Source: an uncultured Candidatus Saccharibacteria bacterium
Lineage (GTDB): Bacteria > Patescibacteriota > Minisyncoccia > Phycocordibacterales > EsbW-18
DNA: 40,812 bases
Direction: 5' to 3'
Assembly: GCA_964564385.1 (NCBI GenBank)
Contig: CAZMAP010000002.1
Coordinates: forward strand, 1-40,812
The first letter of the stretch is position 1; every line of letters starts with the position of its first letter. The position numbers and the translations under genes are program-made. The notes under the pieces were generated by a model. It had not been told where the DNA came from and did no database searches. It saw only the letters and a list, made by a program, of their open reading frames with translations. Below, piece after piece: positions 4,498-25,567 of the stretch.

Positions 4498-5373
4498 ATG
4501 TCTCCAGAAAACCCTCCAAATATTGATACCCCAGAAACCAAGTTACAAAAAGCCGAAAGAGAAACCTTTGAAGAGTTGCCGTTACAGCTAGGTCCGCATG
4601 GGGGCCTCCTTTTTAAGGATCCTACAAAGGGATTTGATCCAGAATACGAATATCTAAGTACTGAGCGGCTTTTTACAGATGCACCAAAATTTTGGGAAGA
4701 ACAACAAGCACTAGTAGAGAATAATGGGGCCTATAAGGCGTATCCATACAAGGTGCCGTTTACTGCGATTAAGAAATTACCAGAAGAACAACGAGGTAAG
4801 GAGATACTGGCACAACTAACCCTAGCGCGCAGCATACACAGTAGCTACATTGACTTGTCCAAAAACGAAAAGCGAGACCCCGGTGCAGTAATAGAGCTTG
4901 ATATACCAGAAGGATCAGCGCGAACGTGGTTCAAGTATTTATTTTTTGAGGACTGTTTTGCTCATCCGGGAACAGGCACGTTTTCCCAATTAAAAGATGT
5001 CTTATTTGAATTATCACAAGAGGAACAACAATCGGCACTTGAGTGGGCAGTTAGATATTCCTTAATACATGGAACTCACGCACGTACCCCTGGATTTTTC
5101 GCTAAAATTGATGCCCGAGACATTGTCGGTGTTTTTCTCGATGAAAGGTTCAAGGTCTTACAGAGTTTACTCAACCAGGACTATCTAGAATACCTATGGG
5201 CACGAGACCTCGATGACAATTTTAACTTGGATACACAAGAATATAGAACACTTACGGAATCTTTGGGAATGGATCCAGAAAAGATTCTTGCAAAAGCGCG
5301 AAAATGGAGTAATTCCCAGCGCCTAGTCAATAATATTCTTACATATTACCCGGAACTAAAAGACTCCGAGTAA
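4498..5373 (+). CDS. Orphan soluble protein in an AT-richer segment after tRNA-His
   Basis: Clean 291-aa ORF with no competing frames and no motif I recognise. It uses AT-rich codons (aaa, gaa, tta), unlike its neighbours. Confidence 0.6.
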   Translation: MSPENPPNIDTPETKLQKAERETFEELPLQLGPHGGLLFKDPTKGFDPEYEYLSTERLFTDAPKFWEEQQALVENNGAYKAYPYKVPFTAIKKLPEEQRGKEILAQLTLARSIHSSYIDLSKNEKRDPGAVIELDIPEGSARTWFKYLFFEDCFAHPGTGTFSQLKDVLFELSQEEQQSALEWAVRYSLIHGTHARTPGFFAKIDARDIVGVFLDERFKVLQSLLNQDYLEYLWARDLDDNFNLDTQEYRTLTESLGMDPEKILAKARKWSNSQRLVNNILTYYPELKDSE

Positions 5374-7812: not shown

Positions 7813-8748
7813 ATGACAAAGAGCCTCTTAACCAAACTTCCTCTCTTCGTTTTTGTGCTCGCAGGTCTCGTGCTTGCACACAATGCCCATGCCGCCGATG
7901 TTCAATGCTCGTTCACACGCGACCTCACGCTCGGTGATACTGGCGAGGATATTCGCTGTTTGCAAAAGTATCTCAACGGGGCAGGATTTACTGTTGCCAC
8001 AACAGGTGTTGGTTCCCCGGGAAACGAAACGAGTCTCTATCGAGAGCACACGGTTGAGGCGGTAAAAAAGTGGCAGACGGCTCGTGGTATCTCGCCAGCA
8101 ACGGGCACCTTCGGTCCTCTCTCGCGCTTGTCGTACACTAAGTCGCTCGCCGCATCCGTTGCCGCCACAACTCCGGCACCTGTCATTGCGGCACCGAGTA
8201 CAACAGTGACAAAGCCGTCGGTCACGACACCGTCATCACAAGAGAATAATGCGCGAACGAGGCTCAAGGCGGCAATCGAATCGCTCGAAGACGCAAAGAA
8301 AGAATTCAATGACGCGGAGGATAACAACGATGATACTGGTGATGCTGAGGACATGATCAATGACGCCAACGAGAGCTTCTTTGATGCTGTTCGTTCGTTT
8401 TTGAAAGACGACTTCACGCAAGCAGTTGATTATGCCGATGAGGCGCGGAATTTTGCCGATGACGCACAAGATGAGATTGATGGCGACGGCGATGACGATG
8501 CCACCGAGAAAGATGCTCGTAAGGCAATCAACAATGCCGAGGATGATATCAGCAACGCAGAAGATGACATCAACCAGGCCGACGACGACGGTGTCAATGT
8601 CAGGGACGCAGAAGATCTTCTCGACGATGCCAACAATCTTCTCGACGATGCCAATGATGCCTTTGACGATGAAGACTGGGACGAAGTGATCGACATCGTC
8701 GACGAGATTAACGATGTCCTCGACGACATCGACAACGAGCTCGATTAA
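7813..8748 (+). CDS. Secreted protein: signal peptide, peptidoglycan-binding domain, Asp-rich acidic tail
   Basis: Signal peptide LAHNAHA. A PG_binding_1-like segment: LTLGDTGEDIRCLQKYLN...AVKKWQTARGISPATGTFGPLS. The C-terminal half is D/E/N low complexity. Confidence 0.75.
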   Translation: MTKSLLTKLPLFVFVLAGLVLAHNAHAADVQCSFTRDLTLGDTGEDIRCLQKYLNGAGFTVATTGVGSPGNETSLYREHTVEAVKKWQTARGISPATGTFGPLSRLSYTKSLAASVAATTPAPVIAAPSTTVTKPSVTTPSSQENNARTRLKAAIESLEDAKKEFNDAEDNNDDTGDAEDMINDANESFFDAVRSFLKDDFTQAVDYADEARNFADDAQDEIDGDGDDDATEKDARKAINNAEDDISNAEDDINQADDDGVNVRDAEDLLDDANNLLDDANDAFDDEDWDEVIDIVDEINDVLDDIDNELD

Positions 8749-8845
8749 GGTTTATTTGTTGCCACGCGATATGCGTGGGGGACAAGAAGGCCCCAAGAGG
8801 GGCCTTCTTTGATATACTTGGAGAAGCTAGCTAAAAAGAACAGAT

Positions 8846-11608
8846 ATGAAACAAAACTCTATTGCTATGGGGGTGCAAACGAAGATGACGAGGCTGTTTC
8901 TTGGTGTTTTTTGTTGTGCTGTTGTGCTCGCTCTCTTTCCTGGTGTGTCACAGGCCGCTACAGCTTTGGACTCTATTCCCGATGCGGTGAAGAGTCAATA
9001 CACATTCAATGGTTCGATTTATGCGGCTGTCAGTGACGGGAACACCCTCTATGTCGGCGGCGAATTCACATCGGTGGCGCTTTCATCGCCCGGAGATCCG
9101 GTCGAGTATGAGCGCACACACATCGCGGCGATCGACCTGTCAACGTATACCCTCACCACTCTCGATACGGTGCTTGATGATGCGGTCCGTTCTCTTGAGC
9201 TCGCATCAGATGGCACGCTCTATGTTGGCGGTGATTTCTCGACGGTTGATGGCGCAGAAAATCCTTTTCTTGTCGCTCTCAATACAAGCACGGGGGTTGC
9301 ACTGTCTTCTTTTGCATCAGCACCGGATGCCTCGGTTGTTGCTCTGGCACTCTCACCTGACGAGTCGGTTCTCTATGGTGGTGGGGGCTTCTCAACCCCA
9401 GCCTCGAATGTTGTTGCATACACAACCTCGGACAGGACGGAGACTGCTTTTAGTGCACAGGCGGACCTTTCGGTTAGGGCGCTTTCAGTATCATCTGACG
9501 GAGCGTCGCTCTATATAGGAGGCGATTTCACCAAGGTGGGAGGAGAAATTCCCCAGATCGGCATAGCTCGTGTTGATGCGGATACGGGCGTGTTGGACGG
9601 CTCGTTCGCCTCTGCGCTTTCGGGCGGCAGTATATACGGCATGCAGCTTTCTTCGGATGATGGTGTGCTGTATGTGGGTGGCGATTTTGACACCTTCTTC
9701 ACACAAAGCGGCGAGGGAGCAATCTTCAATGAGACAACAAAAGCATTTGTAGCATCTCCAAAAGTTTCGACGCAGGCTGGGGGAGGCGATGCAACAATTT
9801 ATGCGGTGATCCCGGACGGTGATGGAGGGTGGTATATCGGAGGAAGTTTCACTCACGTGGGAAACACGGCACAGGCGCGGCTCGCGCACATCACTGCTGC
9901 AGGAGCGCTCGATACGAGCTTCGATCCTGTCATCAACAACGGACAGGTGAACGCATTGGAGCTTTCGCTCGACGGTACAGTGCTCTATGCGGGCGGATCG
10001 TTCAACCAGGTCGAAGGGGTGGCACATAGGCACGTTGCCGCATTCTCGACGGCAACCGGCGCGGCTACGGCGTTCGATCCCGATCCCGATGCAACAGTTC
10101 GTGATCTTGAGCTTTCGTCCGACGGCGATACGCTCTATATAGCGGGCGATTTCAGTGCGGTGGCGGGAGGCAGTCGCCACGGAATCGCGGCGTTCGATGT
10201 GGGGACCGATGGCTCGCTTCTAGCGTTCGACGCCGATCTCTACGGCGCTGGGTATGCCATCGAGCTGTCGGCCGATGATTCTGTTTTGTATGCTGGTGGA
10301 AATTTTACGAGCGTCAAGTATGGTGCTGGGCCCGGGACGCTCCGAGACCGCATCGCGGCATTTACCACGGCTGGTGCAGGGGCAGTGACGGCTTTTAACC
10401 CAGGCGCCGACAGCATCGTGCACGACCTCCTTCTTTCGGGGGGCGGAGGGACTTTGTACGCGGGAGGAGAGTTCTCTGTTGCAGGAGGTGAGGCGAGAGG
10501 ACGTTTTGCGGCACTCGATACTGTAACGGGCAGTTCAGCGGGCCTTTCTGATATTGGTATCACGGGAGGTATCGCAGCGGTCTTTTCAATGGGGGTCGCG
10601 TCAGATGGAGAGACTGTGTACCTTGGTGGAGATGATTTCGCTGAGGTCGGCGGCGTGGCGCGAACGCGTTTTGCCGAAATCGATGCGGCGACAGGAGCAG
10701 TGACAAGCTTTAATCCTGCTTTTGATGATACGGTGTACGCTGTTGCTGTTGATGCAAGCGCTGGGAGACTTTATGTGGGCGGCAGCTCGTCGGGGTTCGG
10801 GTTCGAGACAGCTTCAAAGATTGTTGCAATCAACACAGCTGACGGCTCGTTTGTCTCTAGCTTTGCACCAAGCGCGAACAATACCGTGCGCGTACTCAAG
10901 CTTTCGCCCGATGACACGATTCTCTATGCCGGCGGGCTTTTTACCGACATCTCGAGCACGGCGCGCAACTATCTTGCCGCACTCGATACATCTGACGGTT
11001 CACTAACGGCATTTGACCCGTCGGGGACGTTCTCGGTCTATGGCATGTCGCTTGCGCCGGATGACTCGGAATTGTATGTGGGGAGTTTTGATGACGGCGA
11101 CGCCATGGCGTCTGACCTGCTCATCTTTGATGCAGATGGAGATGCTGGCGGGGCAGGTGATGACGATGATGACGACGGTTCGGGGGGCGGTGATACGGGG
11201 AGCAGTGGCTCGAGCCGCCGCGGCGCCGCGCACTCAACTCAGGGAAACAGTCGCCTTTTCTTCCTTCTCGAAAGACTTCGCGATCTTTTGAGAGAGCTCG
11301 TCAGTATAGGGGGGACGATTCCTCCGGGCGCGGAGCAGTATCTCATGGATGATAGCGTTGGGAGTGCATGCTCGTTTGGGCGCGATCTCACGCTTGGTGA
11401 CAGAGGAAATGATGTGATCTGCCTTCAGAAGATTCTCATCACGCGTGCGGTTGGCACCGCTGGGCAGGCGCTGGGAGCCAATGGCGCAACAGGATTCTTT
11501 GGTGCTCTCACACAAGCGGCTCTTACTGAGTTTCAGGCATCAGTGGGTATCACGCCGTCGGCTGGGTACTTTGGTTCTGTGACTCGCGCATACATGAGCA
11601 CGCTTTGA
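8846..11608 (+). CDS. Large secreted beta-propeller repeat protein (delta-60/DUF5122-like repeats) with C-terminal peptidoglycan-binding domain
   Basis: At least 12 repeats of the type V.AL.LS.DG..LY.GG.F..V.G..R..IAA.D..TG....F.P, a poly-Asp linker, then LTLGDRGNDVICLQKIL...LTEFQASVGITPSAGYFGSVT. Confidence 0.8.
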   Translation: MKQNSIAMGVQTKMTRLFLGVFCCAVVLALFPGVSQAATALDSIPDAVKSQYTFNGSIYAAVSDGNTLYVGGEFTSVALSSPGDPVEYERTHIAAIDLSTYTLTTLDTVLDDAVRSLELASDGTLYVGGDFSTVDGAENPFLVALNTSTGVALSSFASAPDASVVALALSPDESVLYGGGGFSTPASNVVAYTTSDRTETAFSAQADLSVRALSVSSDGASLYIGGDFTKVGGEIPQIGIARVDADTGVLDGSFASALSGGSIYGMQLSSDDGVLYVGGDFDTFFTQSGEGAIFNETTKAFVASPKVSTQAGGGDATIYAVIPDGDGGWYIGGSFTHVGNTAQARLAHITAAGALDTSFDPVINNGQVNALELSLDGTVLYAGGSFNQVEGVAHRHVAAFSTATGAATAFDPDPDATVRDLELSSDGDTLYIAGDFSAVAGGSRHGIAAFDVGTDGSLLAFDADLYGAGYAIELSADDSVLYAGGNFTSVKYGAGPGTLRDRIAAFTTAGAGAVTAFNPGADSIVHDLLLSGGGGTLYAGGEFSVAGGEARGRFAALDTVTGSSAGLSDIGITGGIAAVFSMGVASDGETVYLGGDDFAEVGGVARTRFAEIDAATGAVTSFNPAFDDTVYAVAVDASAGRLYVGGSSSGFGFETASKIVAINTADGSFVSSFAPSANNTVRVLKLSPDDTILYAGGLFTDISSTARNYLAALDTSDGSLTAFDPSGTFSVYGMSLAPDDSELYVGSFDDGDAMASDLLIFDADGDAGGAGDDDDDDGSGGGDTGSSGSSRRGAAHSTQGNSRLFFLLERLRDLLRELVSIGGTIPPGAEQYLMDDSVGSACSFGRDLTLGDRGNDVICLQKILITRAVGTAGQALGANGATGFFGALTQAALTEFQASVGITPSAGYFGSVTRAYMSTL

Positions 11609-11668: not shown

Positions 11669-12199
11669 ATGAGCACACCAGCAGTAATTGTCAGTGATCT
11701 TATTATGTGGGGTGTCCTCGTGCTTCAAATTGTTGTTGTTGTTGGCCTTGGTGTATTTATCTTTGCGCGAGACAGTGTCTCTGCGTTTATTGAACGGCAT
11801 GCGCTTTTCATCGCATTCCTTCTTGCTGGGGTCTCTATCCTCGGGAGTTTCTATTATTCGAGCATTCTCGGATTTGAGCCGTGTCGTTTGTGCATCTATC
11901 AACGCTGGCTCATGATAGCGCTTCTCATTGTTGCGGGTATCGCAGTATATCGTGGCGATCGTAATGCGTTTCCGTATATTGCGGGGATCTCGCTCATGGG
12001 CCTTGCCGTTGCGGTGTATCAGATATTTCTCCCATTCTTTAAACCAAGCTACATCTGCGCGCCGGGGGAGGTGTCATGCACCACCACCTATGTCACTGGA
12101 TTCGGATACATCACGATTCCGGTCATCTCTCTTACGGTATTTGCCGCAATGCTTCTTGTGTGGGCCTTTCAGCGACGCTCAAAGCCGGTGGTGCTATAA
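11669..12199 (+). CDS. Disulfide bond formation protein (DsbB/BdbC family)
   Basis: Four TM segments, the CRLCIYQRW motif, and a second Cys pair C..GEVSC in the periplasmic loop. Confidence 0.75.
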   Translation: MSTPAVIVSDLIMWGVLVLQIVVVVGLGVFIFARDSVSAFIERHALFIAFLLAGVSILGSFYYSSILGFEPCRLCIYQRWLMIALLIVAGIAVYRGDRNAFPYIAGISLMGLAVAVYQIFLPFFKPSYICAPGEVSCTTTYVTGFGYITIPVISLTVFAAMLLVWAFQRRSKPVVL

Positions 12200-12241: not shown

Positions 12242-13096
12242 ATGGATTCACTTATAAAAGAGCGATCGATGAAGGTGCTCTCTGCGCTCGGCATTGTTCT
12301 CACAATCTATGTTGGTGTTCTTGCGCTCGCAAAGCTTCGCGAATATCCCTACATTGGTTCGCAGTACCCGAGTGGCAATGTTATCACCGTCACCGGCGAG
12401 GGCGAGGTGTTTGCCGTTCCTGACATTGCGGAAATCAGCTTTAGCGTAAATGAAGAGGCGGACACATTGCCCGCAGCACAGGAGGTTGCTGCCACCAAGA
12501 TGAATGCCGCAATCGACTATCTCACGTCGAACGGTGTGGATGAGAAAGATATCAAGACGACCAATTATAGCGCAAACCCTCGCTACGAATATCGTAACGC
12601 TGGTGTGATGCCGATGTACGACACGTCGGTGCGCGAAGGTGTGAGCACCGGAAGCGCGGGGTCTGCAGTGACGATGTCATATCCTGTGCCGGGTGGTGAT
12701 ACACGTGTACTCGTTGGCTACGATGTCAACCAGACCATCTCGGTGAAGGTTCGTGATACCAAGAAGGCCGGTGAGCTCATCGCGGGTGTCACCGCGCAGG
12801 GTATCACCGATGTCTACGGTCCCAACTTCACCATCGACGATGAAGACAAACTCCAGCGCGAGGCGCGTCAGGATGCTATCAAGGATGCTCGTGCAAAGGC
12901 CAAGGAGCTCGCCGACGACCTCGATGTGCGCTTGGTCCGCGTTGTCTCGTTCAATGACAACAATGGAGGGTACTATCCGATGTATGCAAAGGTGGAGATG
13001 GCAATGGATAGTGGTTCTGTGCCGACAGCACCAAACATCACGCCGGGCGAGAATCGCATTGCAGCATCAGTGACGATTACCTACGAGATTCGATAG
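12242..13096 (+). CDS. SIMPL/DUF541 domain protein
   Basis: N-terminal TM, ITVTGEGEVFAVPDIAEISFSV, and ...ARAKAKELADDLDVRLVRVVSF... are typical SIMPL. An alternative start is at 12269. Confidence 0.75.
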   Translation: MDSLIKERSMKVLSALGIVLTIYVGVLALAKLREYPYIGSQYPSGNVITVTGEGEVFAVPDIAEISFSVNEEADTLPAAQEVAATKMNAAIDYLTSNGVDEKDIKTTNYSANPRYEYRNAGVMPMYDTSVREGVSTGSAGSAVTMSYPVPGGDTRVLVGYDVNQTISVKVRDTKKAGELIAGVTAQGITDVYGPNFTIDDEDKLQREARQDAIKDARAKAKELADDLDVRLVRVVSFNDNNGGYYPMYAKVEMAMDSGSVPTAPNITPGENRIAASVTITYEIR

Positions 13097-13184: not shown

Positions 13185-13213
13185 TTGACAAAGTCGACCA
13201 AAAGGCCTATAAT
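13185..13213 (+). promoter_or_regulatory. Perfect-consensus sigma70 promoter TTGACA-17-TATAAT
   Basis: TTGACA at 13185-13190 and TATAAT at 13208-13213. It is followed by a ~140-nt leader with the hairpin GGTTAGTT..GCTTTTA...TAAAAGC..AACTAACC. Confidence 0.7.
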
Positions 13214-13363
13214 GAACTCGGAAGCACTTTCAAAAGAACTACGGGTTAGTTGCGGCTTTTAGCGCATTTCTCGTGCCTTAAAAGCTGTAACTAACCTAGG
13301 CGAGCTCGAGGCCCGAACCGTTGTGGTGAGGGTGGGGAGCAAACCAAAAGAGGAGTAACGCAA

Positions 13364-14008
13364 ATGGCAAGCAAGCATGCCCCGAACGTCCTGATCTCGG
13401 CAGCGGGATGGCTGATGCAGTTCGTCAGTCTCCTGATCAAGGGCCTTCTGGCCCGGGGCTGGGACAGCGAGCGCATTCACGCGCTCGCCACCGACAAGGG
13501 TGCGGCGGACATGGAGCGCCTCGTCGAGGCGGTTCTCAACGCTTTCGCTGCGCCGCTGGCTCCCGTGATCGATCTCGCAACCGGCATCTGCCGATTTACG
13601 GTCGACTTCACGAAGACGCTCGAGGAGATGATCGCCGCCGGGAAGTACGACTGGCGGAACAACGTCATCACCTCACAGCTGTTCCCCATCGTCGGGAACG
13701 GTACGGTCGTCGTGGACGCCAAGCTGTTCCACTTCGGCCGCAGTACCACTTCCAACGAAGTCGAGCGCGAGCTCGAAACCGCCGGATACCGTTCGGCGAC
13801 CATCGCGGAACTCCTGGCTTTCGGGGCATCGTTCCCGGAAGTCCAGCGACAGTTCCCGGTGATCGCTCTCGGCTCCGTCACGAAGGTCAGTGGCGGCCGC
13901 AGCGTCCCGTGCCTCGTCCGGCACGGCGCGGAGCGGAGCCTCGACCTCGACTGGCGCGGCCGCGTCTGGGGCGACGCCTGTCGGATCCTGGCCGTTCGCA
14001 TCAAGTAG
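13364..14008 (+). CDS. Orphan protein, GC-rich cassette, paralogue family P (copy 2)
   Basis: SD AAGAGGAG lies upstream of the ATG. The C-terminal segment ATIAELLAFG...FPVIALGS...VPCLVR...DWRGRVWGDACRILAVR resembles copies 1 and 3. The overlapping ORFs in other frames are R/P-rich high-GC artefacts. Confidence 0.65.
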   Translation: MASKHAPNVLISAAGWLMQFVSLLIKGLLARGWDSERIHALATDKGAADMERLVEAVLNAFAAPLAPVIDLATGICRFTVDFTKTLEEMIAAGKYDWRNNVITSQLFPIVGNGTVVVDAKLFHFGRSTTSNEVERELETAGYRSATIAELLAFGASFPEVQRQFPVIALGSVTKVSGGRSVPCLVRHGAERSLDLDWRGRVWGDACRILAVRIK

Positions 14009-14069
14009 TTCTCTGGTTCTTGACCCTTTGCTTCGCCGTCAGGCGAATAGCACTCGGGTCTTGGACCTT

Positions 14070-14110
14070 CCCGGCGCAACCTACCAAGGTGGCGCCGGGC
14101 TTTCGTTTTT
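14070..14110 (+). terminator. Intrinsic terminator with GCTTTCGTTTTT tail
   Basis: CCCGGCGC(14070-14077)/GCGCCGGG(14092-14099), then CTTTCGTTTTT. Confidence 0.75.
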
Positions 14111-14111
14111 A

Positions 14112-14362
14112 TATAATTAAACCAACAGACGAAAAATCTAAGGTCACGGCTTTAGATAGTTTGTTCGCACGCTCGGGAGTGAGAGTTTCGACGGCTACGG
14201 TTGTCGGAAGGGTGTTTCCGAGTTCTGAATAAAAACCAGAGAAAGTTGGTGCGTTCGGGAATCCTGATTCACAAGAGTGACAGGGGACACTCCAGACTCC
14301 CGCTCTAGGGTGTGAGCCTTTCAGCCTGTCGACGCGCCGCGTCGGCGGGCTGTGCTGTTTTT
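14112..14362 (+). ncRNA. Candidate ORF-free transcript ending in a strong terminator
   Basis: It lies between two terminators, with TATAAT at 14112-14117. There is long-range pairing CGGGAGT/ACTCCCG. A 14-bp GC stem (14323-14336/14338-14351, two G-U pairs) is followed by a T-run to 14362. No credible ORF. Confidence 0.25.
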
Positions 14363-14610
14363 AAGAATGACTGAAAGTATTTTTTAGTAATACTACTTTC
14401 CAAACCAAGCTCACTAGAAGCGGCTTCGTGCTTTTCGTGCAAACACACAGTATGGCTAATCTTGCGGAGAATCAGTGTTCAAAATAAGAAGTTGGCTCGG
14501 GTCTTTTTGGGAACATTGGTACAACCCTTGACTTGTGGCGTGCTGTGCGGAGAATGGGCCTCGGACCATAGCCGCATAGCGTGCGGCACAGCGCAGGAAA
14601 GGAGTTGGAA

Positions 14611-15522
14611 ATGCAAGAGCAAGTGCTGGGGACACAACATCCGCTTGAGGGCCGTTTGTTCAGCCGGAGGACCTTTTCCAACTGGAAGGGGCGACTGGAA
14701 AAGGCGACGGAGGTAGATGAGATGGTGAGCCTGCTTTATGGTGGGTTCAGGCTCCACTCCTTGTCTCACGACGAGGAGAATGAGCGCCTTATCATCTACT
14801 TGAGTTATGCAGATGGTGGGCAGAGTAATCCTGCGAACGAGATAACCGAGAAGGCGTTTGCGGAACTTTCTCGCGTGTTCACGCTTCCGAAGGCCGGATC
14901 GGATAAGACACAGAGAATTATGTACTGGTTGTATCGGCTCTCCGAGCGTGATGTCTTCGGTAAATTCCTCTGGTTCTTCGATCCAAAACGTAACAACATC
15001 CCGCCTCGGTTCAGTCGGAGTCAGGCGCAAGGTGTTGTTGCAGAGTTTCTCGAGACGGTTCTTTCGGCACTGTCTCGCTGGGGTGACTACATTAGCCGCC
15101 CTTTGAATGTGGCTCAACTTTCTCACTACGAAGAGAGCGCCGTGATGTGGTCGGAGGCTCGCACCGCAATCATGGACATCATGGAAAGAAACGGCACTCT
15201 GCGTTCTCTCCACCCTGGACTGTGGAGGAAGGGCCCGACGCGACGCCATCTCAAGCACATGGCGTGCCGGAGTGTCTTTGGGTATTCCAAAGTCTCCGGC
15301 CCGATTATGAACGATTTTCTCTTGGCGCACGCACTCAAGGAAAACAACCAGGCAGCGTGGATCCTTGCCCGAGAGCATTTCGAGAGAAAACTGCGCGCCA
15401 GAGAGCTCTGGAAAGAGCGGAATGCGCGTCGTCGGGAGAGGAAGACGACGCTTCTGTCTGAGGTCAGGGAAGCGGAGGTTCGGCTCGAACTGGCACGAAG
15501 ACGAGTCGCGGGTCTTTCTTGA
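14611..15522 (+). CDS. Orphan protein (303 aa) with basic coiled-coil C-terminus, GC-rich cassette
   Basis: The ATG at 14611 is preceded by GGAAAGGAG. A promoter-like TTGACT(14528-14533)-16-GAGAAT lies upstream. No motif recognised. The antisense 299-aa ORF was rejected. Confidence 0.6.
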   Translation: MQEQVLGTQHPLEGRLFSRRTFSNWKGRLEKATEVDEMVSLLYGGFRLHSLSHDEENERLIIYLSYADGGQSNPANEITEKAFAELSRVFTLPKAGSDKTQRIMYWLYRLSERDVFGKFLWFFDPKRNNIPPRFSRSQAQGVVAEFLETVLSALSRWGDYISRPLNVAQLSHYEESAVMWSEARTAIMDIMERNGTLRSLHPGLWRKGPTRRHLKHMACRSVFGYSKVSGPIMNDFLLAHALKENNQAAWILAREHFERKLRARELWKERNARRRERKTTLLSEVREAEVRLELARRRVAGLS

Positions 15523-15667
15523 TCTACGGACCCTCCTGCAGTTCTTTTTTGGCTTGTCGGCAGGTTCGTCGGATTCTGGCTCGTCATTGACTGGCCTCCC
15601 GAGAGCCTCGTTCTGGTTCTGACGTCTCCTTTGGAGTCGTGAACCTAGTCTTCGACCTAGTTTTCTT

Positions 15668-15735
15668 GGGCACTACCGCCTACCACACCCGTTGGTGTAT
15701 CAGCGGGAGCCTCGCAGCGATGCGGGGCTTTTTGT
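15668..15735 (+). repeat. ~70-nt double-hairpin element, copy A
   Basis: GGGCACT.CCGCC.ACC...CCCGTTGGTGTATCA.CGGG.GCCTCGCA....TGCGGGGC + T-run. About 80 percent identical by eye to 25496-25567. Differences fall in loops or preserve pairing. Confidence 0.75.
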
Positions 15736-15795
15736 ATCTCAACACCACACACCATCTTCTTTTTTGCAAAACTGATACAATAAAGTGCAAAGCAT

Positions 15796-17550
15796 ATGCG
15801 CATTGACACCGAACAGCTCAAACAATTTCTTATCGACGCGCGACTTGTCACTGAGGCTAAGCTCGCCGATATCGAGAAAGCGGCCGAGAAGAGCGACACG
15901 ACGCTCGAAGAGGCGCTCGTCTCCGAAGGTGCGCTCTCCGAAGACGATGTGCGTCGCGCAAAGGCACACGTTATCGGCATTCCGTTTGTTGACCTCAAAG
16001 ATCAAAAGATAGAATTTAGTCTTTTGTCGCTCATTCCTGAGCCCATCGCTCGAACACACAATATTGTGGCGTATGGCAAAAATGCCCGTGGTCTCGAGGT
16101 GGCCATGCTCGATGTGGGCGACCTTCAGGCAATCGATTTTGTGAAAAAGAAGACAGGCCTCTCGATCCTGCCGCGTCTCACCGATGCCGAGTCGGTGAAG
16201 CGTGCACTCCTTCAATACCAAAAGAGTCTCAAGGCCGAATTCGGCGACATCATCAGCACGGAGGCGGCGTCGCTTGTTGCTATCGCCGAGAGTGACGGCT
16301 CGGAGGCTTCGGGAGAAGATCTCAAAAAGATGGCCGAAGATCTTCCGATTGTCCGTATCGTCGATACGCTTATCAAACACGCCGTTGTTCAAGGCGCATC
16401 CGACATTCACATTGAGCCCATGGAACGCGAACTCCTCGTTCGTTATCGCATCGATGGACTCTTGCACGATGCCATGACACTTCCGCGTCAGGCGGCGCCG
16501 GGTATTGTTGCGCGCATCAAAGTACTTTCGAGTCTCAAGCTCGATGAGAAGCGTCTTCCACAGGATGGACGTTTCAAGATCGACCTCGATGGCGAGAAGG
16601 TGAGCTTCCGCGTATCAACACTTCCCACATACTACGGCGAGAAGACCGTGATGCGCGTGCTTCGTGAAGGCGGGGGAGGGTATACGCTCGAGGCGCTTGG
16701 ATTTCACGGCGAAGGGCTCGAATCAATCCATTGGGCTACCAAACAGTCGACCGGCATGATTCTTACCACCGGTCCTACCGGGTCGGGTAAAACGACCACG
16801 CTTTATACGGTGCTTGATATTCTCAATACGCCCGATGTGAACATCTCGACCATTGAGGATCCGGTGGAGTACCAAATGCCTCGTATCAATCAGACTCAGG
16901 TGAAACCCGAGATTGGTATGACCTTTGGCAACGGACTTCGTTCACTTGTCCGACAAGACCCTGACATCATCATGGTTGGTGAGATTCGTGACACCGAAAC
17001 CGCGTCGCTTGCTGTGAACGCTGCACTTACCGGACACTTGGTGCTTTCGACGCTCCACACCAATTCGGCCGCCGGCGCTATCCCTCGCATGCTCGACATG
17101 GGGGTTGAACCGTTTCTTTTGGTCTCGACAATCAAGGTCATCATTGGTCAGCGTCTTGTACGCACGCTCGCAAAGGAGAAGAAAGAAGAATACACACTTT
17201 CGAAGGCAGAGATAGCAACATTGGCAAAGACGGTAGATCTCGATCGCATGCTCAAGTTCCTTGTGGCCGAAAAAATCGTCAAAGATGGCACAAAATGGGA
17301 GGATATTACTTTCTACCGTCCAAAAGGAGGGTCCGATGTGGAGGATGGATACAAAGGGCGCTCTGGTATTCACGAAGTCTTGCACGTGACACCAACGGTG
17401 AAAGAACTCATTATGAAAGGTGCTACGGGTGATGCTATTGAGGCACAAGCCAAGAGTGAGGGGATGATGACAATGCTCGAGGACGGTGTTTTCAAGGCAA
17501 CACAGGGCATTACAACACTCGAAGAAGTGTTGCGTGTGGTGACAGAGTAG
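15796..17550 (+). CDS. pilB: Type IV pilus assembly ATPase PilB (GspE family)
   Basis: T2SSE N-terminal domain, Walker A GPTGSGKTT, Asp box VRQDPDIIMVGEIRD, His box GHLVLSTLHTN. Confidence 0.93.
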   Translation: MRIDTEQLKQFLIDARLVTEAKLADIEKAAEKSDTTLEEALVSEGALSEDDVRRAKAHVIGIPFVDLKDQKIEFSLLSLIPEPIARTHNIVAYGKNARGLEVAMLDVGDLQAIDFVKKKTGLSILPRLTDAESVKRALLQYQKSLKAEFGDIISTEAASLVAIAESDGSEASGEDLKKMAEDLPIVRIVDTLIKHAVVQGASDIHIEPMERELLVRYRIDGLLHDAMTLPRQAAPGIVARIKVLSSLKLDEKRLPQDGRFKIDLDGEKVSFRVSTLPTYYGEKTVMRVLREGGGGYTLEALGFHGEGLESIHWATKQSTGMILTTGPTGSGKTTTLYTVLDILNTPDVNISTIEDPVEYQMPRINQTQVKPEIGMTFGNGLRSLVRQDPDIIMVGEIRDTETASLAVNAALTGHLVLSTLHTNSAAGAIPRMLDMGVEPFLLVSTIKVIIGQRLVRTLAKEKKEEYTLSKAEIATLAKTVDLDRMLKFLVAEKIVKDGTKWEDITFYRPKGGSDVEDGYKGRSGIHEVLHVTPTVKELIMKGATGDAIEAQAKSEGMMTMLEDGVFKATQGITTLEEVLRVVTE

Positions 17551-17641
17551 CGCCGACAGCTTTTTCTCTGATCAAGGAGGTACACTATATCTAAAGCAAA
17601 AAGGTGAAGCCAAAAGTTAAAAGCTTGGTATACTTTTCGTA

Positions 17642-18850
17642 ATGAAGTTCTCATACAAATCTGTTACGGCAAACGGAACGGTCGAAGAAAACATTCGTGA
17701 AGCAGACGATCAGTTTGCGCTTGCCCGCGATCTTAAGGCCGAAGGAAAGACCCTCATCACGGCGGAGGAGACAGATGAAAAAGCTGCAGCCTCGCGGTTC
17801 AATCTTTCATTTGGAGGTGTGAAGCTTGCCGACAAAATCACCTTTGCCAAAAATCTTGGGGCAATGATTGATGCGGGTCTTGCGCTTTCTCGTGCCCTTG
17901 CCGTGATGGAGCGTCAGGCAAAGAGCGCAAAATTCAAAGAGATTCTTCGTGCACTTAGTACGTATGTCGAAAAAGGTTCGGCCTTGTCAGACGCGCTCGC
18001 CAAATTCCCCGAAACGTTTTCAGCGCTCTTCGTATCAATGGTTCGCGCCGGAGAGGAGTCGGGGAAGCTTGGTGATTCGCTTCGCATTGTTGCTGAACAG
18101 ATGGATCGAAGTTACGCGCTTCGTCGCAAGATTCGCGGCGCGATGATGTATCCGACGATCATTCTTTCTGTGATGGTGATCATCGGTATCCTCATGCTTA
18201 TGTTTGTTGTTCCAACCCTTACCGCAACATTCACAGAGCTCAACGTGAAGCTTCCGATGACGACGCAAGCTGTTATCTCGATGAGCGATCTTCTTACGGC
18301 CCATCCGGTAGGGGTTATTGGTGGTCTTGTGCTCTTGATTATTGCGTGCATTACCGCCTCGCGGACACGTCGGGGAAGGCGAGGGTTCGAGTTCGTTATG
18401 CTTCGTATGCCGATCATTGGCACGCTCATCAAAGAAACAAACGCCGCACGCATGTCACGAACATTTTCATCGCTCCTTTCCTCGGGTGTCGATATGGTCG
18501 CTGCCATTTCCATAACACAAGACGTTCTCCAAAATTCATTCTACAAAGAAGCGCTTGCAGAGGCGGGACGAGAAATCCAAAAGGGTGCTGCCGTCTCGGC
18601 TGTTTTTGCTCGATATGAACGATTGTTTCCGCCGATGGTGAACGAAATGATAGCTGTGGGCGAGGAGACAGGAAAACTCCCGGGCATGCTCCTTCAGATT
18701 GCAATCTTTTTCGAGGGTGAGGTCGATCAAAAAACAAAAGATATGTCGACAGTCATTGAGCCGTTTTTGATGGTCATCATTGGTGCGGCCGTTGGATTTT
18801 TTGCCGTATCAATGATTACTCCAATCTACTCGCTTTCGAGCGGAATCTAA
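17642..18850 (+). CDS. pilC: Type IV pilus platform protein PilC (GspF family)
   Basis: Two T2SSF repeats (GEESGKLGDSL and GEETGKLPGML) and three TM segments. Confidence 0.9.
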   Translation: MKFSYKSVTANGTVEENIREADDQFALARDLKAEGKTLITAEETDEKAAASRFNLSFGGVKLADKITFAKNLGAMIDAGLALSRALAVMERQAKSAKFKEILRALSTYVEKGSALSDALAKFPETFSALFVSMVRAGEESGKLGDSLRIVAEQMDRSYALRRKIRGAMMYPTIILSVMVIIGILMLMFVVPTLTATFTELNVKLPMTTQAVISMSDLLTAHPVGVIGGLVLLIIACITASRTRRGRRGFEFVMLRMPIIGTLIKETNAARMSRTFSSLLSSGVDMVAAISITQDVLQNSFYKEALAEAGREIQKGAAVSAVFARYERLFPPMVNEMIAVGEETGKLPGMLLQIAIFFEGEVDQKTKDMSTVIEPFLMVIIGAAVGFFAVSMITPIYSLSSGI

Positions 18851-24808: not shown

Positions 24809-24907
24809 GTGCGCGGACGTGGTCTCTGAAACGGACACAAACAAATCAGTGGGCTCTGTCCCACACGGCCAATGGCCGAAACTTCGAGGGAGAAGGAGAA
24901 AAGATCT

Positions 24908-25489
24908 ATGGATCTCGTAAAGGAGTTGTTGGAGGGGGTGCTGCTAGCGGTGTTTCTTGCCGCACTCGTCATGCCGATCGTTTTCTGGATTCGGCGCCGG
25001 CGCAAGAAGACCAACCCAATCCTCGTTCGTTTGTACGAGAACGAGGAGATCGTGGTTGGCTCGACCACAGGTGAGGAGACAATCGCGAAGGCACGGCATG
25101 TCTTTGCTGGGTATCTCGACTCCGATTTCGAGCGCTGGGGCGCGAATGTTCCGAGTGGAACACCAACTGAACGGGCCAAGATCGCGGTGTATGAGGTGTG
25201 TCGTGATGCGAATTTGGCCGAGATGTTCGGTTCCATCGGCAATTTGAATTCGCACGCACTCTCTCAGGGGCAGATCCTCCGCTTCGTTCTGGAGCATAAC
25301 GACAAGTTGCAACCAGACGAACTTGCCACGTTCTTTCTCCTTCGGGTGGGGAGCGGGTTTCTGGTTGTGCGAATTTCCAAATTGCGGGGGGAGCTCGTGG
25401 AGCGACTTGAGCGTTTCGACGACCCAACTATCTGGAGGGGTGCGGGCCGGCGTCGGGTGGTCGTTGTCAAGGCTGGGTCGTCCAAGTAG
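24908..25489 (+). CDS. Orphan protein, GC-rich cassette, paralogue family P (copy 3), N-terminal TM anchor
   Basis: SD GGAGAAGGAG lies before the ATG at 24908. N-terminal LLAVFLAALVMPIVFWIRRRRKK. The C-terminal NLAEMFGSIG...QILRFV...TFFLLRVGSGFLVVRI...WRGAGRRRVVV aligns with copy 1. Confidence 0.65.
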   Translation: MDLVKELLEGVLLAVFLAALVMPIVFWIRRRRKKTNPILVRLYENEEIVVGSTTGEETIAKARHVFAGYLDSDFERWGANVPSGTPTERAKIAVYEVCRDANLAEMFGSIGNLNSHALSQGQILRFVLEHNDKLQPDELATFFLLRVGSGFLVVRISKLRGELVERLERFDDPTIWRGAGRRRVVVVKAGSSK

Positions 25490-25495
25490 TTCCTC

Positions 25496-25567
25496 GGGCA
25501 CTTCCGCCCACCTCGCCCGTTGGTGTATCAACGGGTGCCTCGCACGTTGTGCGGGGCGCTTTCGTTT
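25496..25567 (+). repeat. ~70-nt double-hairpin element, copy B (includes the terminator)
   Basis: See 15668-15735. Hairpins CCCGTT-ggtgtatc-AACGGG and CCTCGCA-cgttg-TGCGGGG, then CGCTTTCGTTT. Confidence 0.75.

Follow-up and report, generated by a model that had tools for sequence, protein, structure and literature searches.

The DNA analysed here, called the window throughout, is a stretch of 40,812 nt (positions 1 to 40,812 of contig CAZMAP010000002.1) with a GC content of 0.525 and the aspect of a contig from the Patescibacteria, or candidate phyla radiation (CPR). Between its SIMPL and pilB genes, at positions 13185–15735, lie two open reading frames (ORFs), ORF A (13364–14008) and ORF B (14611–15522), together with non-coding DNA. 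Our comparison with related loci makes it highly probable that this region is a decayed cassette of a diversity-generating retroelement (DGR), which has lost its reverse transcriptase (RT), its avd gene and its template repeat (TR), and which stands beside an unrelated gene of a separate family. The segment 13185–14253 would be the front portion of a DGR of the type specific to Patescibacteria, with ORF A as its target gene, while 14254–15735 would be unrelated DNA made up of ORF B, its own upstream region and a terminator module common to another gene of the window. A previous sequence-only reading had described the region as a GC-rich island in which two orphan genes form a module built up by tandem accretion of cassettes, an older one of which had decayed. 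It rightly took both ORFs to be real and the region to be accessory DNA. The decay of a cassette was also correctly suspected; the decayed one would be ORF A's own DGR, cut at position 14253.

Results

ORF A encodes a protein of 214 aa on the forward strand, with an N-terminal helical region and a predicted C-terminal C-type-lectin-like domain. It has 54 homologues in a large protein collection, and 80 further genomic loci of the family came from GTDB representative genomes, nearly all of them metagenome-assembled genomes (MAGs) of Patescibacteria. In what follows, 81 loci (designated L006, L007 and so on) served for the cassette survey, 88 for the co-occurrence with ORF B, and 76 family members for the composition of the variable region (VR). 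ORF A is 69–72% identical to the corresponding proteins of L006 (69%), L007 and L096. The family alignment displays a conserved core of ~140 aa followed by a hypervariable tail of ~40 aa built on a fixed scaffold, VP.L...R.L.L.W...W...CRFLAVRK. Judged by these sequence relationships, ORF A is a homologue of the variable (target) protein of the Patescibacteria DGR clade.

The nature of this clade is evident from the intact relatives. In L006 the ORF A homologue is followed by bAvd and RVT_1 reverse transcriptase genes, and the final 129 nt of the target gene recur 359 nt downstream with 87.6% identity. All 16 of the 16 mismatches between the two copies fall on adenines of the downstream copy. 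A repeat whose mismatches are confined to adenines is the signature of a DGR, with the VR in the gene and the TR downstream of it. About 30 of the 81 loci carry such a VR/TR pair, the mismatches again being almost exclusively at TR adenines, and an RT is present in 24 and Avd in 26 of 80 loci. The intact loci have a fixed order: target (+), a spacer of ~350 nt, TR (+), avd (−) and RT (+). Described more fully, a promoter and leader precede the target gene with its 3′ VR; then come a hairpin and terminator, a second promoter with an RNA of ~250 nt, the TR, avd on the opposite strand and the RT. Mutagenesis appears to be ongoing in these relatives. The locus L007, from a GenBank MAG, and L096, from an independent assembly, differ over 1287 nt at no more than two sites, both in the VR (L007:10611 and 10614, corresponding to L096:844 and 847). 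Since both of these sites are TR adenines, we conclude that the intact relatives are active in nature.

The VR of ORF A itself (13871–13999, + strand) can be aligned with the TRs of L006 and L007 without a single gap. Compared in this way with the orthologous TRs of these two loci, the window VR departs from them at 21 of the 29 positions that are A in both TRs, against 5 of the 98 that are A in neither (Fisher p = 4e-13). The VR has been depleted of adenine (9% A, 76% GC), and it is this depletion that causes the GC spike of ORF A. The GC-rich island of the sequence-only reading thus shrinks to one gene: ORF A alone is GC-rich (0.653; 0.85 at third codon positions; 0.76 in the VR), the remaining parts of the region lying between 0.49 and 0.55.

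Searches for domains gave no match of ORF A in Pfam, PHROGs, NCBIfam or PADLOC, and the family profile matched nothing among the PDB sequences. The AlphaFold (AF2) model has a mean predicted local distance difference test score (pLDDT) of 89, with 95–98 across the domain core. The top ~40 PDB hits of this model in Foldseek are all C-type-lectin-like domains. These matches are weak (E-values of 0.018–0.4, a top probability of 0.98 and template modelling (TM) scores of 0.42–0.56 by target length), as are the C-type lectin hits returned by a viral structure library. Taken together with the family context, the weak Foldseek scores suggest that the C-terminal domain adopts a C-type-lectin fold.

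The non-coding sequences on both sides of ORF A are shared with the intact cassettes. Upstream, the perfect sigma-70-type promoter that had been recognised from the sequence matches the consensus TTGACA-17 nt-TATAAT at 12 of 12 positions (13185–13213), and both the −35 and −10 hexamers are also discernible in L006 (alignment A2). The promoter is followed by a structured 5′ leader (13214–13363) composed of a hairpin at ~13243–13297, a second stem-loop at ~13299–13345 and a ribosome-binding site. The predicted hairpin leader of ~140 nt is borne out by the fold of 13212–13363, with a minimum free energy of −56.1 kcal/mol (z = −3.84 relative to shuffles) and a hairpin of ~22 bp as its core. This hairpin is kept in L006 and L007, with a leader identity of 86% and 37 consensus pairs, of which three show compensatory changes.

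Downstream of the stop codon, the segment 14006–14112 folds with −53 kcal/mol (z = −6.3). It contains a stem-loop (14015–14067) with an inner hairpin, TTCGCC-GTCA-GGCGAA, at 14032–14047; the inner stem reads AACGCC/GGCGTT in L006, that is with two compensatory pairs relative to the window. The hairpin lies 23 nt past the stop codon, the position where DGR homing hairpins are found, and may act as one. The GC-rich 3′ end of the VR is likewise conserved, and VR and TR are identical there in the relatives. Next comes the intrinsic terminator of ORF A (14070–14110; stem at 14070–14099, then a T-run), which is 92–93% identical in L006 and L007. Overall, the non-coding stretch past the ORF A stop is conserved to 91–93% in these two loci, compared with 80–82% for the coding sequence.

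In the intact cassettes the terminator gives way to a structured RNA of ~250 nt lying immediately upstream of the TR, which we refer to as the pre-TR RNA. Copies are found at L006:6325–6584, L007:10767–11026 and 22 other loci, and the alignment of these 24 intact cassettes (A8) supports 47 consensus pairs, 37 of them with compensatory changes. An nhmmer profile built on this alignment matches the window at 14106–14253 with E = 1e-22, covering only model positions 6–161 of 257. The matching piece comprises a promoter-like TATAAT box (14112–14117) and the helices P1 and P2, which still fold (z = −4.0). A long-range helix of the intact RNA begins just past the window breakpoint and pairs with the TR border; the window piece lacks the 3′ strands of this helix and of two further ones, and a full-length match fails.

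The pre-TR RNA is outside every Rfam family. At gathering thresholds Rfam recognised only tRNAs in the window and in seven intact cassettes (L006, L007, L008, L011, L016, L018 and L038), none of which gave a match in the pre-TR RNA, and the pre-TR RNA of L017 remained without a match at E ≤ 5. A candidate RT-7 hit at 14179–14226 was rejected, since it scored 17.9 bits against a gathering score of 116.8 (E = 0.25). It is the sub-threshold score of RT-7 and the silence of the intact cassettes that place the RNA in no Rfam family.

The point at which the resemblance stops is sharply defined. The window is collinear with L006, L007, L096 and L097 over 13218–14253 and with L093 over 13567–14253, and homology to all five loci ends at 14253. 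In alignment A5 the window likewise parts from L011, L016 and every intact cassette right after AGTTGGTGCG. Beyond this point follow 109 nt of replacement sequence (14254–14362), carrying a strong terminator with its T-run (14322–14352; fold z = −2.2) and having no BLAST match in the 81 loci. The sequence-only reading had singled out an ORF-free unit bounded by a terminator, and indeed the unit begins with the TATAAT box and ends in the strong terminator. It is also more than a spacer, as its first part matches the pre-TR RNA of DGR cassettes. Since the window departs from the intact cassettes after 14253, the unit is a chimera of the 5′ 60% of a pre-TR RNA and 109 nt of unrelated sequence.

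None of the components that make up a complete DGR (RT, TR and Avd) is present in the 40.8 kb of the window. For the RT, neither tblastn with the L006 enzyme nor a profile hidden Markov model (HMM) of 21 family RTs, run with --max over all six frames, gave a match. The family profile HMM for Avd found no hit better than E = 3, and no repeat of 13871–13999 was detected by blastn with a word size of 7 or by profile nhmmer.

Among its closest relatives the window takes its place in a series of decay stages. Full cassettes are found in L006, L007 and L096/L097. The locus L093 (8001–9225) retains the target, a complete pre-TR RNA (8703–8963) and a TR ending at ~9089, after which comes RecO and not avd and RT. 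The window keeps the target and about half of the RNA, and L031 (10001–10666) represents a second, independent cassette truncated within the pre-TR RNA, at model position 171 compared with 161 in the window and with no RT within 10 kb. In L095 and L098, finally, nothing of the cassette but the target gene is left. Decay is recurrent in the ORF A family, its stages being the full cassette, the target with RNA and TR, the target with half of the RNA, and the target alone. At L034 (10676–11830) we noted a different arrangement, in which the pre-TR RNA match halts at model position 219 and is followed directly by a shortened avd and the RT; the TR seems to be absent or relocated.

Among the 76 members analysed, 47 are without a cassette in the fetched DNA, and for 34 of these at least 3 kb of downstream sequence is available and contains no RT. 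Their VRs have an adenine fraction of 0.114, compared with 0.098 for cassette-linked members and about 0.23–0.24 for the remainder of the gene. Surveys anchored on the RT miss such remnants, and given that 47 of 76 members have no RT in the fetched DNA and yet an adenine-depleted VR, the proteins shaped by DGRs in these bacteria probably exceed the counts centred on RTs.

Discussion

We have assembled these data into a model for the history of the region. In the intact relatives the RT makes errors at adenines as it copies the TR RNA, and the resulting cDNA takes the place of the VR and so rewrites the ligand-binding face of the predicted C-type-lectin-like domain. At the window locus the cassette would once have been complete at the site between SIMPL and pilB. 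A deletion or replacement would then have taken out everything beyond 14253, namely the 3′ 40% of the RNA, the TR, avd and the RT; deletion seems a better description of this loss than partial transfer. What is left would be an intact and strongly promoted gene, presumably expressed and presumably encoding a protein that binds a ligand through a surface carrying the scars of past adenine mutagenesis; the means to diversify this gene would be gone from the locus.

Several observations weigh against this model. The analysis covers one contig of the genome, and an RT and TR may be located elsewhere. In no relative did we find a complete cassette flanked by SIMPL and pilB; with this ancestral state missing, the front portion may have been acquired as such instead of being left over from a loss in place. 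The structural evidence for the lectin fold consists of weak Foldseek values (E = 0.018; TM scores of about 0.45–0.49 by target length). Finally, the retained RNA of the window has diverged by 6.8%, compared with 4.7% between intact cassettes, while the coding sequence has diverged by 18.4% compared with 13.1%. Measured against the coding sequence the RNA has not diverged in excess, and a positive sign of neutral decay is absent; either the truncation is recent or the piece may still be under constraint.

Two alternatives concern the activity that may remain at the locus. ORF A could still be diversified in trans if a complete DGR at another place in the genome used it as a remote target, with the RT, Avd and a matching TR of that DGR working through the intact VR 3′ end and the hairpin behind it. 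Remote targets are recognised in the literature (PMC8144416). Such a role would fit the preservation of ORF A, its promoter, the 3′ end of the VR (CTGTCGGATCCTGGCCGTTCGC) and the post-VR hairpin, all of them intact and conserved, and the adenine depletion of the cassette-less members, which equals that of the linked ones; several genomes, moreover, hold multiple members of the ORF A family. We nevertheless regard it as unlikely. The truncated pre-TR RNA implies that this copy once had, or derived from, its own cassette, and the attached fragment speaks for the loss of a cassette in cis and not for a target that had been remote from the outset. The 13 kb before the gene and the 27 kb after it contain no RT. 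In addition, five Logan contigs, which are sample assemblies, cover part or all of the region at 99.99–100% identity, and the four of the five that span the VR show zero differences from the window, although these are consensus assemblies in which minority variants are invisible. The other possibility, which we consider improbable, is that the stretch 14106–14362 is a functional stand-alone small RNA kept by selection, for instance one that binds RT-Avd made elsewhere. Its well-defined bounds (a TATAAT box and a strong terminator) and the persistent folding of P1 and P2 would suit such an RNA, as would the truncation of L031 at a nearly equal model position. The piece also shares 91–93% identity with the intact copies, and the ratio of its divergence to that of the coding sequence equals the one found between intact cassettes; a recent truncation accounts equally well for this conservation. 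The long-range helix to the TR border has however lost its 3′ partner, and the chimeric unit has no independent homologues by BLAST in the fetched loci. Loss of the cassette in cis by truncation remains the reading that we prefer.

The model of the sequence-only reading, in which ORF A and ORF B belong to one multi-component module that grew by tandem accretion and 15600–15735 is the decayed tail of an older copy, is highly improbable in the light of the wider comparison. It could draw on the variable location of ORF A cassettes between genomes, and on short resemblances downstream of ORF B: the VR end matches 15567–15583 (GTCGGATYCTGGC) in a weak but collinear fashion attained by 6 of 500 shuffles, and a faint likeness to the post-VR sequence within 15567–15625 (TCTGGTTC..GAC..CCTTTG) is attained by 41 of 500. 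The similarity originally invoked, between GTTCTCTGGTTCTTGACC and GTTCTGGTTCTGAC (the 14008 region versus the 15610 region, GTTCT..GGTTCT), is equalled by 41 of 500 shuffles and does not stand. Profiles of the VR end with post-VR sequence and of the TR end find nothing downstream of ORF B that would represent an older decayed cassette; indeed, over the whole of 14254–15800 no TR or VR relic or second cassette tail was detected, even at E ≤ 100 with profile nhmmer, blastn-short returning only noise. The window contains no ORF A paralogue, and the repeated element behind ORF B also trails an unrelated gene at 25478–25557. Above all, the two families never occur together elsewhere. A profile search found ORF B relatives within ~10 kb in none of the 88 ORF A-family loci, and none of the eight ORF B-family loci outside the window (L087–L092, L100 and L102, representing five distinct neighbourhoods) has an ORF A relative, an RT or Avd. 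The lack of co-occurrence refutes the two-gene module, and ORF B is not part of the DGR. We therefore retain the decayed DGR cassette next to an unrelated gene as the most plausible account of the region.

DGRs of Patescibacteria/CPR were reportedly first described by Paul et al. in 2017. They were subsequently shown to form a clade of their own ('DGR clade 2', Roux et al. 2021), whose targets lack recognisable domains and were predicted to be new C-Lec variants (PMC8144416). The element described here resembles them in its host group, in being cellular and not viral, in the adenine-specific mutagenesis of the intact relatives and in its small target with a C-terminal VR and no recognisable Pfam domain; the window copy differs from them by the absence of TR, avd and RT. 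Surveys that start from the RT, among them that of Roux et al., by their own statement do not detect targets located away from it (PMC8144416). The remote or orphan targets discussed in the same study share with ORF A a VR gene, an adenine-depleted VR and the absence of an adjacent RT. Unlike these, the window keeps an attached fragment of the pre-TR RNA of its own cassette.

With the DGR of Bordetella phage BPP-1 (mtd-avd-TR-brt) the family has in common a C-type-lectin-fold target, as predicted here, with a 3′ VR, a hairpin downstream of it, and Avd and RT in the intact relatives. A further likeness is that the TR of BPP-1 is embedded in a structured RNA required for cDNA synthesis (bioRxiv 10.1101/2023.10.23.563531). 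It differs by its order (target, structured RNA of ~250 nt, TR, avd on the opposite strand, RT), by its chromosomal and not phage-borne location, by the lack of detectable similarity between ORF A and Mtd, and, in the window, by the lack of the machinery. The TR must sit in a structured RNA that wraps RT-Avd, and the covarying pre-TR RNA is consistent with this requirement (bioRxiv 10.1101/2023.10.23.563531). Structured RNAs beside bacterial RT genes, possibly including those of DGRs, have been collected as the Rfam motifs RT-1 to RT-19 (Weinberg et al. 2017, PMC5737381). The likeness of the window to these is confined to the one sub-threshold RT-7 hit, and the intact pre-TR RNAs are unmatched.

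The existence of DGRs, their abundance in CPR bacteria, their lectin-fold targets and the occurrence of remote targets were all known before. What the present analysis offers is that an apparent orphan island resolves into a known mechanism and provides a concrete case of DGR decay in the small genomes of Patescibacteria/CPR. Its by-products may prove more useful than this main finding: a covarying pre-TR RNA that is absent from Rfam and a recurrent link to pilB and pilC.

As to this link, 15 of the 81 ORF A-family loci have a PilB-like ATPase at a distance of at most 10 kb (raw locus counts), and orthologues of both pilB and pilC are found in L006, L014, L018, L020, L050, L054 and the window (15796–18850). 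In L006 (2962–9358) and L020 (7293–13528) the whole DGR cassette is inserted between pilB and pilC. It is tempting to think that this protein family has a functional connection with the type IV pilus apparatus of Patescibacteria, a hypervariable adhesin for the attachment to host cells being one conceivable role, but we consider this idea quite doubtful. If it were true, the window copy, directly upstream of pilB, would be a frozen variant or one that is rewritten in trans. The cassette of ORF A sits at different insertion sites in different genomes. Directly upstream of the intact cassette of L006, the closest related genome, we observed the gene of a Y1 (IS200/IS605-type) transposase (4707–5300), which may have a bearing on the movement of the cassette between sites.

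ORF B and neighbouring features

A scan of the window ORFs against a profile library identified DsbB (11669–12199) and SIMPL (12242–13096) upstream of the region, and pilB (15796–17550) and pilC (17642–18850) downstream of it. ORF B (14611–15522, + strand) encodes a protein of 303 aa that belongs to a fast-evolving, all-helical family and ends in a C-terminal helix of ~55 aa. A word-indexed search had matched ORF B only to itself; it is nevertheless no orphan, as phmmer found 14 relatives at E ≤ 1e-3 in a representative library. Their E-values range from 1.7e-12 to 3.5e-4 (the self-match having 5e-200), and all are ~300 aa long. A profile search enlarged the family by P0070–P0077, bringing the total to about 20 distant relatives. 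The alignments A7 and A10 define its motifs as HPL, W-EWK, GLLH-GF, YL-ADG, KA(F/W) and LWFF-N-P, followed by a C-terminal coiled coil, and ORF B itself has the family length, the motif set and the coiled coil. No match to ORF B was found in Pfam, PHROG, NCBIfam or PADLOC. The AF2 model (pLDDT 86) is all-helical, and a Foldseek search of the PDB returned only generic designed helical repeats with TM scores of at most 0.26. A degenerate RT or Avd was considered as the origin of ORF B and rejected, as RT and Avd profile HMMs found nothing in any of the six frames. The relatives of ORF B are located amid housekeeping genes such as mraZ, a mur ligase gene, gyrB, lytB, Band_7 and translin.

The intergenic region that precedes ORF B (14363–14610, + strand) comprises an AT-rich stretch, a weak promoter-like site at 14528–14555 (9/12) and a ribosome-binding site, and has no homologue in the fetched loci by BLAST. 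The hairpins that had been proposed for its AT-rich part are not supported, the segment 14363–14480 folding no better than shuffles (z = +0.37). Nor is there anything particular in its resemblance to the arm words of an inverted repeat elsewhere in the window: TTCGTGC occurs 13 times against 8.5 expected and is not enriched.

The shared double-hairpin element that the sequence-only reading had placed after ORF B, in contrast, is real. It is a hairpin-plus-terminator module (15652–15728, + strand) with a second copy at 25478–25557; the two copies are 80% identical over 80 nt, which none of 500 shuffles equalled, and each folds into a hairpin and a terminator. Only these two copies are present in the window, and the module may be either a terminator in common use or a small repeat element. 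The second follows ORF 24872–25489, which encodes a protein of 205 aa with an N-terminal transmembrane-like helix and a sub-threshold match to Pfam EACC1 (E = 0.07). The sequence-only reading had also regarded ORF A as the second copy of a family within this DNA; tblastn and a profile HMM at maximum sensitivity revealed no other ORF A-family member in the window. ORF 24872–25489 was examined as a candidate paralogue and rejected (BLASTP E = 20; nothing with the profile HMM). It is unrelated to ORF A, yet the two genes have a like stop context (AAGTAGTTCC/TCTC).

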